From an uncultured bacterium (GTDB lineage Bacteria; Babelota; Babeliae; Babelales; Vermiphilaceae), in contig OY969699.1 of assembly GCA_963702025.1 (NCBI GenBank), forward strand, positions 672,001 through 736,000: a DNA stretch of 64,000 nucleotides, in the 5' to 3' direction. Both the position numbers and the translations under genes were made by a program. This document shows, one piece after another, positions 28,357 through 28,746 of the stretch. The number at the start of each line of letters is the position of its first letter. Within the stretch, counting starts at the first letter, position 1. The notes under the pieces were generated by a model, which made no database searches, was not told the DNA's origin, and was given only the letters and a program-made list of their open reading frames with translations.

Positions 28357-28746
28357 TTACCCTTTAGACTCGTGAACCCGGGGAAGATTTATTGCTAGTA
28401 AGAATCGCTCTGTATCATAGAGATTCATAATTTGTTTGATAGTTACGTTGTCGGGTAAATTTTCTCCTCTTTTCTCGGAAGGTATTATAATTTCATAAGT
28501 GTAATACAAGGGAAAAAGAGATTGTTGGGCCACCGGAATTCCTTCCATATCCTTGATATGTGTTTTAACATCTAAAACGGTGGAATTATTAGTAATAGGA
28601 AGATGATCATTGATCAGTTTTAATGGAGTGCTCACATGAATTGAATTGGCAGCGAGCACCCACGCTTTTAGATGTTGCCCTTGTTGCATTGCAAAACCGG
28701 TTGCGGTTATAAGACTTATTGATAAAAGTGTAATTTTTTTGTTCAT
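28357..28746 (-). CDS. Exported ubiquitin-like protein
   Basis: A-MQQ; STVLDVKTHIKDMEGIPVAQQSLF versus ubiquitin [24 protein letters not shown]. Confidence 0.8.
   Translation of the reverse strand: MNKKITLLSISLITATGFAMQQGQHLKAWVLAANSIHVSTPLKLINDHLPITNNSTVLDVKTHIKDMEGIPVAQQSLFPLYYTYEIIIPSEKRGENLPDNVTIKQIMNLYDTERFLLAINLPRVHESKG

Follow-up and report, generated by a model that had tools for sequence, protein, structure and literature searches.

The ubiquitin-like gene and its product

We analysed a stretch of 64,000 nucleotides from the genome of an uncultured bacterium of the Babelota (Dependentiae), family Vermiphilaceae (assembly GCA_963702025.1, contig OY969699.1, positions 672,001 to 736,000 of the forward strand), which is called the window below. 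The reverse strand of this window carries a short gene whose product combines a predicted Sec signal peptide with a ubiquitin-like (UBL) domain and a C-terminus without diglycine (Table 1). The gene is present in one copy in its own genome, a single contig of 1,596,033 bp that is rated 95% complete.

Read from the sequence, the predicted signal peptide consists of MNKK, a hydrophobic stretch and the ending GFA directly ahead of Met20. The homologues show the same ending, an A or G followed by M and then by E or Q. It is on this Sec-type N-terminus, predicted from the layout, that an earlier reading of the DNA from its sequence only (the sequence-only reading) rests in calling the protein secreted. 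The predicted mature protein of about 110 aa would start at Met20, and the domain that follows the signal peptide spans about 105 aa.

A scan for promoters and terminators around the gene gave matches no more numerous than expected from shuffled sequence. A fraction of 0.14-0.34 of the sampled words was present in four DNA runs from one soil-metagenome study; no RNA run was listed.

Table 1. Coordinates of the UBL gene, its parts and the other features discussed (window positions unless a contig is given; residues in mature numbering where marked)
Feature	Position	Strand	Basis
UBL gene (129 aa, stop codon included)	28357..28746	-	ORF list and homologue searches
Predicted Sec signal peptide, residues 1-19 (MNKKITLLSISLITATGFA), cut predicted before Met20	28690..28746	-	sequence layout, homologues alike
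N-terminal extension, mature 7-14, L-x-x-W-V-x-A-A, short helix ahead of strand 1	28648..28671	-	column counts and model
UBL domain, first half, mature 15-61 = ubiquitin 1-46, holds EGIPxxQQ	28507..28647	-	ubiquitin alignments and column counts
13-residue insertion (YYTYEIIIPSEKR), extends strands 3 and 4 into a hairpin	28468..28506	-	model strands 56-64, 71-74
UBL domain, second half, mature 75-101 = ubiquitin 47-72	28387..28467	-	structural alignment
C-terminal tail LPRVHESKG, without diglycine	28360..28386	-	sequence
Upstream neighbour (26-nt gap), 270-aa signal-peptide protein, oligoribonuclease-like C-terminal half	28773..29585	-	phmmer, NCBIfam
Downstream neighbour (5-nt gap), 175-aa signal-peptide protein, no known family	27824..28351	-	Pfam and NCBIfam blank
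GNAT protein	27000-27827	-	
ORFs with a small residue before Met at the junction	24142-25014, 25446-26144, 29943-30497, 30648-31211, 31909-32799		
Transposase genes (DDE_Tnp_1, DDE_3) inside the exported ankyrin/WD40/BTB block	9171-10295, 41069-41698	-	Pfam
BTB/Skp1-POZ-like domain (about residues 505-640) in 1058-aa WD40 protein 13413-16589	14670..15077	-	Pfam
Exported Skp1_POZ/BTB-like proteins	G000:C1 399348-401351, 1446600-1447958, 657338-659179; window 13413-16589		Pfam
Adjacent signal-peptide proteins of G071, 363 and 336 aa	L018 (G071:C9) 1452-2543, 2594-3604	+	ubiquitin domains
Four divergent UBL-family genes in a row, between dnaK and ychF-like genes	L023 (G020:C1) 2205-5623		

Sequence relationship to ubiquitin

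Taken singly, the protein gave marginal matches to ubiquitin. Pfam family PF00240 was matched over residues 49-78 with an E-value of 9e-4 and 19.4 bits, under the cut-off of 25.4 bits. A phmmer search of the PDB returned mono-ubiquitin chains at E ~0.65, where LPITNNSTVLDVKTHIKDMEGIPVAQQSL aligned with ubiquitin 15-43; this segment holds 13 identities in 29 columns of the local alignment. The strong E-values against polyubiquitin chains come from the summing of repeats. In a word-based search, P0002 (57% identity) was the single relative.

When 1.84 billion representatives were searched exhaustively with a profile, 563 proteins scored E<=1e-3. Of the top 150, about 50 were proteins of 97-170 aa with a single end-to-end match, and the rest were polyubiquitins matching only profile positions ~30-60. 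We built the family alignment A2 from 49 of the short matches, and the column counts given below rest on these 49. PF00240 was matched by 44 of the 49 members at E<=0.01 (best 3.6e-8), and the A2 profile retrieved mono-ubiquitin (e.g. 1otr_B) at E 3.3e-8. Moreover, hhalign of A2 against one ubiquitin unit gave a probability of 97% and an E-value of 9.8e-11 over 42 columns with 38% identity, covering ubiquitin 2-44. As judged by these comparisons, the match at family level lies well beyond chance, and the family belongs to PF00240, while the window protein alone stays below the cut-off. The Pfam search that had been suggested as a check of ubiquitin kinship thus failed on the single sequence and succeeded on the family.

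The sequence-only reading had recognised helix 1 of ubiquitin and the signature EGIP-x-x-QQ-x-L, and the alignment of LPITNNSTVLDVKTHIKDMEGIPVAQQSL bears this out, marginally for the single sequence and strongly with the family profile. It had also paired GENLPDNVTI with GKQLEDGRTL of ubiquitin. This segment lies outside the sequence alignments, and the pairing agrees with the structural alignment and with the conserved G75, L78 and D80. No NCBIfam family matched the protein itself, and its relatives gave weak Rad23 N-terminal matches. The Pfam families of ThiS/MoaD were matched neither by the window protein nor by family members. In a protein atlas, unnamed clusters ranked first (0.92, 0.90) and ubiquitin-family clusters came next (0.86-0.89), with those of UBL5 and the SF3A1 UBL at 0.88-0.89; we take these neighbours as leads only.

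Predicted structure

AlphaFold2 run on A2 gave a model with a predicted local distance difference test (pLDDT) of 90.3 and a predicted template modelling score (pTM) of 0.79; a model from two sequences was discarded (pLDDT 53.7). In mature numbering, a short helix (9-13) is followed by two strands (16-20 and 29-31), a helix (38-49), a long hairpin (56-64 with 71-74), a further helix (84-91) and the last strand (95-100). According to the model, this is a beta-grasp fold with the order strand-strand-helix-strand-strand-helix-strand.

All 50 rows listed by Foldseek against the PDB were ubiquitin or its variants (best E 1.3e-5, TM 0.80, target-normalised). With VIA-align, model residues 15-105 superposed on ubiquitin 1-76, with a Z of 10.3, a root-mean-square deviation (rmsd) of 2.0 Å over 69 of 70 residues and ~29-31% identity. 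FAT10, ISG15, the Parkin UBL, FERM F1 and the Bacteroides ubiquitin BfUbb (8hm2_B) came within one Z unit of ubiquitin at lower identity. Neither Elongin B nor NEDD8 was among the 50 rows listed by Foldseek or VIA-align, which is not an exclusion. The protein had been described beforehand as resembling eukaryotic ubiquitin and not ThiS/MoaD. Since the model is a beta-grasp with ubiquitin, not the sulfur carriers, as its best match, this view is upheld by all 50 listed Foldseek rows as well as by the top sequence matches, which were ubiquitin or members of its family.

Conserved positions of the family

Position numbers in this section are the mature numbering of the window protein. The family keeps the core and structural positions of ubiquitin (I17, V19, I32, V38, V41, I45, I51, L58, L78, I84, F96 and L98) together with the E-G-I-P-x-x-Q-Q loop. 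K42, which corresponds to ubiquitin K27, is found in 48/49 members and D80 (ubiquitin D52) in 39/49; the chain-building lysines besides K27 are not retained. The second half of the domain is marked by G-x-x-L-x-D, by the conserved helix N-I-K-x-x-M-N-x-Y-N-T and by the last strand F-L-L-x-I.

Other conserved features belong to the family itself. Its N-terminal helix reads L-x-P-W-V-x-x-A, with W10 in 45/49 and V11 in 46/49 members, and in the N-I-K-x-x-M-N-x-Y-N-T segment K85 is kept in 47, M88 in 45, N92 in 39 and T or S93 in 48 of them. All 49 have an insertion after strand 3, which ranges from 9 to 23 aa (mode 13) and is usually rich in Trp and other aromatics; the insertion of about 13 aa noticed earlier in the window protein measures exactly 13 (YYTYEIIIPSEKR). 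The column equivalent to Ile44 of ubiquitin is variable (Y16, H6, R5, F4, N4, S3, L3 and K2 among the 49), and hydrophobic or aromatic residues prevail at the positions matching L8, H68 and V70. The best-conserved surface positions (W10, V11, K85, M88, N92, T93) are family-specific. With the Ile44 patch variable and this surface best kept, a specific partner is therefore favoured over generic mimicry of free ubiquitin.

C-terminus and conjugation

Diglycine was absent from the last 20 residues of all 64 family members, and the window protein ends in HESKG, where the sequence-only reading had rightly seen ESKG in place of LRGG. A single terminal G occurs in 7/64 members; the window protein and the five relatives nearest to it are among these and end in -KG. 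Some members end directly after the last strand, and the length of the tail varies. Because neither the protein nor its family has a diglycine, the earlier proposal that it is non-conjugatable is very probably right.

We also looked for conjugation genes. In the own genome, ThiF gave no match above the cut-off (best 16.2 bits), and UQ_con (E2) gave none, a weak blank since the control was found in no genome. E1, E2 and JAB domains were found neither among the window's own proteins in Pfam scans nor among 70 neighbour proteins from 18 loci of other genomes. At these loci 112 open reading frames (ORFs) were picked and 70 scanned, with UBL or ubiquitin-domain genes and ORFs cut by the locus end left out.

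Distribution and related proteins in the phylum

The phylum set comprised 261 species-level genomes from 21 taxonomic families; those listed belong to one order and have genomes of 0.7-2.4 Mb. The UBL family was found in 24 of the 261 genomes (20 of the 189 of good quality). With the own genome excluded, it occurred in five taxonomic families (f1 14/79, f3 5/41, f11 2/10, f16 1/5, f7 1/12) and in none of the other 16; within the own genus, 4/7 other genomes carry it. A search for related loci with the window protein found no relative among the genome contigs, and one with P0014 gave its own record only. Several copies are present in some genomes. In one of these, G020, four of the six matches form a tandem row (Table 1), and some of the tandem copies are without the EGIP motif, a picture that suggests local duplication and fast divergence. 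A phyletic link with USP deubiquitinases was considered and rejected: 13/24 family-bearing genomes have a USP compared with 90/261 overall, a weak association that is confounded by relatedness.

The domain is also found in larger proteins. P0128 has ankyrin repeats followed by a UBL domain, P0037 has two copies of the domain, and signal-peptide proteins of 214 aa (L016, G097) and 286 aa (L017, G192) carry it at the C-terminus. Its position at the C-terminus of ankyrin and other exported proteins suggests that the domain can act as a docking module that accompanies a second binding domain.

Forms much closer to ubiquitin were found in genome G071, where two adjacent signal-peptide proteins (Table 1) contain ubiquitin domains identical to canonical ubiquitin at 52/73 (363 aa) and 56/71 (336 aa) positions (PF00240 93 bits). 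These domains run into ...LVLRW or ...LVLRIK and then into a long shared C-terminal extension of no known family, without GG. Intermediate ubiquitin forms with 34-36% identity occur in G062, G071 and G015, and in the G015 form (L008) the same site bears an insertion. Within the phylum, the forms hence grade from signal-peptide proteins with near-canonical ubiquitin to the remodelled family. Such a series is the pattern expected from repeated or ancient capture of host ubiquitin with later loss of conjugation, a history that we infer. The near-canonical, GG-less domains of G071 behind signal peptides support a host origin of the family.

Gene neighbourhood and genome setting

The UBL gene lies within a run of genes on the same strand, nearly all of whose products have a basic and then hydrophobic N-terminus. 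The surroundings (24-33 kb) encode exported ankyrin proteins, a GNAT protein, an M15 peptidase and orphans. The 64 kb of the window contain more than 10 ankyrin proteins, several WD40 proteins and two BTB-like matches, many of them behind a signal peptide of the same kind, and two transposase genes. Family members of other genomes have mixed neighbours, among them housekeeping genes.

The upstream neighbour matches PDB oligoribonucleases in phmmer (E 4.5e-17) and the NCBIfam oligoribonuclease family with 83 bits, below the cut-off of 106 bits, and its homologues adjoin the UBL gene in two other genomes (G005 and G002). The first exonuclease motif of oligoribonucleases has a catalytic role. In the printed alignment, the neighbour has G-C-I-T in place of this motif, D-L-E-M, and because of this replacement it may be an exported, inactive nuclease-like binder. 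No homologue of the downstream neighbour was seen next to UBL genes in other genomes. A similar segment (…EQLLN..V.ISF.C.RD…) is visible by eye after the signal peptides of the GNAT protein and the oligoribonuclease-like protein, which suggests a common N-terminal module with differing C-terminal domains.

The BTB/Skp1-like domain of the 1058-aa WD40 protein was matched by Pfam BTB with E 1.4e-4 and by Skp1_POZ with E 0.0065, the latter below the cut-off. This is probably the protein that the sequence-only reading had called ElonginC-like. In the own genome, three Skp1_POZ-domain proteins were above the cut-off, fusions with leucine-rich repeats (LRR) or a metalloprotease-like part that all have signal peptides. 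Two sub-threshold matches lie in WD40 proteins, namely the 1058-aa protein and one just upstream of the window. In the exported proteins of this group, the Skp1_POZ/BTB-like domain is N-terminal or internal and is fused to LRR (two tandem paralogues), to a metalloprotease-like HExxH region or to WD40 propellers, and they resemble ready-made cullin-adaptor mimics. The genome further encodes one USP deubiquitinase and three ATP/ADP translocases, and has a single SOCS-box match, ~630 kb outside the window.

Export

Two secretins were found in the own genome, and a search of it for a type III secretion or flagellar export gate and for VirB4 found none. A crude script counted 908/1552 ORFs with a hydrophobic, uncharged N-terminus. 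In 360 of these 908, the hydrophobic stretch ends in A, S, G, C or T followed by M, and the next residue is most often E (166); examples from the window of such a junction of a small residue and Met are given in Table 1. An N-terminal Met retained after cleavage could suit the host cytosol, or an internal ATG might yield a second isoform.

Two gspD copies have been reported for all TM6 genomes (PMC4776705), signal peptides for 79/126 ankyrin proteins of Babela (PMC4378268) and for 44% of the coding sequences of Chromulinavorax (PMC6561590). The gene content of the own genome matches these descriptions of Dependentiae. With 1.6 Mb and ATP/ADP translocases, it looks most likely like that of an obligate intracellular parasite.

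Discussion

Our data place a signal-peptide protein from a host-dependent bacterium in the ubiquitin family. We see about an even chance that it is a Sec-exported, non-conjugatable effector with a host-derived ubiquitin fold, which binds a host component non-covalently. In this proposal, ubiquitin was probably captured from the host by the host-dependent lineage (Dependentiae/Babelota). Once freed of its signal peptide, the mature protein would be released through a secretin-type route or in vesicles and would affect the host cell by non-covalent binding, in the manner of stand-alone or integral eukaryotic UBL domains. The binding face would most likely be formed by the W-V helix, the aromatic hairpin insertion and the N-I-K-x-x-M-N-x-Y-N-T helix; the Ile44 patch appears less likely. 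The setting is host-directed, with exported ankyrin, WD40 and BTB proteins in the window and USP, Skp1_POZ, SOCS box and ATP/ADP translocases in the genome.

Several points weigh against this proposal. A Sec signal reaches the periplasm only, and we infer the steps beyond it, namely further export, a host target and non-covalent action. The patchy distribution (24/261 phylum genomes) means that the family is dispensable. Since the canonical recognition patch of ubiquitin is not conserved, its usual binding partners are not implied. The conserved family-specific residues may be purely structural. Moreover, the characterised exported bacterial ubiquitin, BfUbb, acts on bacteria and not on a host (PMC5705921, PMC11467351).

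A more far-reaching version, which we regard as possible though doubtful, sees the proteins as a fast-diverging, phylum-wide, Sec-exported family derived from host ubiquitin that lost conjugation and gained a new binding face, and which serves as a ubiquitin-independent docking tag. Free copies would occupy a specific host receptor, and the ankyrin-UBL fusions would deliver a bound host protein to it. Delivery to the proteasome, for instance, would make such a fusion a natural 'degrader' that bypasses E1-E2-E3.

Rather unlikely is a beta-grasp protein of the envelope or periplasm with a bacterial role and no host target, e.g. a chaperone-like protein or an adaptor of a surface structure. The periplasm is where a Sec signal by itself delivers, and the heterogeneous neighbours in other genomes, housekeeping genes included, would suit such a role. 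However, the patchy occurrence in 24/261 genomes, often in several or tandem copies as in G020, fits an accessory effector family better than envelope machinery. Ankyrin fusions also exist, and the gene is surrounded by genes for exported ankyrin, WD40 and GNAT proteins.

Slightly less probable still is a generic decoy, as had been suggested by the sequence-only reading: a free protein that uses ubiquitin's own surface to occupy ubiquitin receptors of the host, proteasome docking sites or deubiquitinases. The retained ubiquitin fold and EGIPxxQQ loop, the mostly hydrophobic or aromatic equivalents of L8, H68 and V70, and USP-type deubiquitinases in the own genome and in 90/261 phylum genomes speak for it. 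Yet R, N, S and K occur among the varied residues at the Ile44 equivalent, the turn of strands 3 and 4 beside the Ile44 patch bears the 13-aa hairpin, and the tail lacks the LRGG gripped by deubiquitinases. In addition, the conserved surface is family-specific, and 11/24 family-bearing genomes have no USP; in this form the decoy claim is not supported.

Elongin B is, like Hub1/UBL5, a eukaryotic non-conjugated ubiquitin-like protein. We find it improbable that the window protein is an Elongin-B-like subunit pairing with the bacterium's exported BTB, Skp1 or Elongin-C-like proteins to build or hijack a cullin ligase, even though exported Skp1_POZ/BTB-like fusions are encoded in the genome, one of them in the window, together with one SOCS-box protein. 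The partners that had been described as nearby are not adjacent: the BTB-like domain is 12 kb away, and the SOCS-box match is outside the window altogether. None of the 70 scanned neighbours from the 18 other-genome loci was a BTB, Skp1 or SOCS-box protein. Elongin B was missing from the 50 structural neighbours listed, which, as said, does not exclude it. Complex prediction of the mature UBL protein with the window's BTB-like domain (residues 498-640 of P0151) gave a score of 0.00 in two runs, without controls, which we take as evidence neither for nor against the pairing.

The closest described system is BfUbb/BUbb of Bacteroides. BfUbb is 63% identical to human ubiquitin, has a C-terminal Cys and no insertion (PMC3352274), and is lethal to related Bacteroides by way of a SusCD importer and a peptidyl-prolyl isomerase of the periplasm (PMC11467351). 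It resembles the present protein in its eukaryotic-type ubiquitin fold behind a signal peptide, without Gly-Gly and without bacterial conjugation machinery (PMC3352274), and its structure 8hm2_B aligns to our model with Z 9.8, an rmsd of 2.2 Å and 22% identity. The present family differs in its ~30% identity to ubiquitin, the W-V helix, the 13-aa hairpin and the varied polar tails, and it is a diverse, multi-member family of reduced, host-dependent bacteria. A BfUbb-like weapon that gets into rival bacteria to poison a target in their periplasm would share the design of signal peptide, ubiquitin fold and missing GG (PMC3352274, PMC5705921, PMC11467351), and BfUbb is among the structural neighbours. 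We nevertheless hold this to be improbable too: the C-terminal cysteine is missing, identity to ubiquitin is far lower than the 63% of BfUbb, and dense competition with close kin is less likely because the organism looks obligate intracellular.

The effector proposal also has parallels in eukaryotic non-conjugated UBLs and integral UBL domains (PF00240, e.g. of the Rad23 type), which are beta-grasp domains without a usable GG that bind non-covalently. Unlike these cytosolic proteins, the present one is bacterial, has a Sec signal and a conserved surface of its own. The beta-grasp is also common to ThiS/MoaD, Bil and CBASS-type systems. Those have a terminal Gly or Gly-Gly and lie beside E1-like, E2-like or JAB genes, whereas here GG is absent, no such gene was found among the window's proteins or the 70 scanned neighbours, and eukaryotic ubiquitin gives the best sequence and structure matches. 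Some eukaryotic UBLs use a single terminal Gly, and a cryptic modifier, in which an E1-like enzyme of the host or of another kind would use the terminal glycine to activate the -K-G subfamily, could appeal to the 7/64 members ending in G; it is nonetheless very improbable, as 57/64 do not end in G, tail length varies, the terminal KG may be shared by descent, and searches of the genome gave neither E1 nor E2 (for E2 a weak blank, its control being found nowhere).

Bacterial interference with host ubiquitin is known to proceed via ligases, deubiquitinases and ubiquitin-modifying enzymes. To our knowledge, bacterial ubiquitin copies are in print essentially for Bacteroides only. In 2018, B. fragilis was called the only bacterium with a ubiquitin copy (PMC6194340). 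Effectors with eukaryote-like domains (ankyrin, F-box, U-box, BTB, USP) have been described for Babela massiliensis and Chromulinavorax destructans (PMC4378268, PMC6561590) and for Parachlamydiaceae (PMC4209131). They share the genomic setting and logic of the present family, with host-derived domains behind Sec signals in Dependentiae (PMC4378268, PMC6561590). As far as the accessible parts show, the published effector lists of Dependentiae and Parachlamydiaceae contain ligase parts and deubiquitinases, not ubiquitin homologues. Within the accessible text of three Dependentiae genome papers, 'ubiquitin' refers to ligase parts and hydrolases only (PMC6561590, PMC4378268, PMC4776705), and in the Babela annotation table, where the word occurs 3 times, both of the occurrences listed mark C19 hydrolases (PMC4378268, supplementary file 9). 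A full-text literature search found no report of ubiquitin homologues in Dependentiae.

Overall, our data add a diverse, exported family with a ubiquitin fold in little-studied parasites of protists. The occurrence of near-canonical to strongly remodelled copies in one phylum offers a natural series on how ubiquitin is repurposed after conjugation is lost. Should the partner indeed be a host receptor, this family with its ankyrin fusions would represent a new effector principle and could supply compact binding modules.

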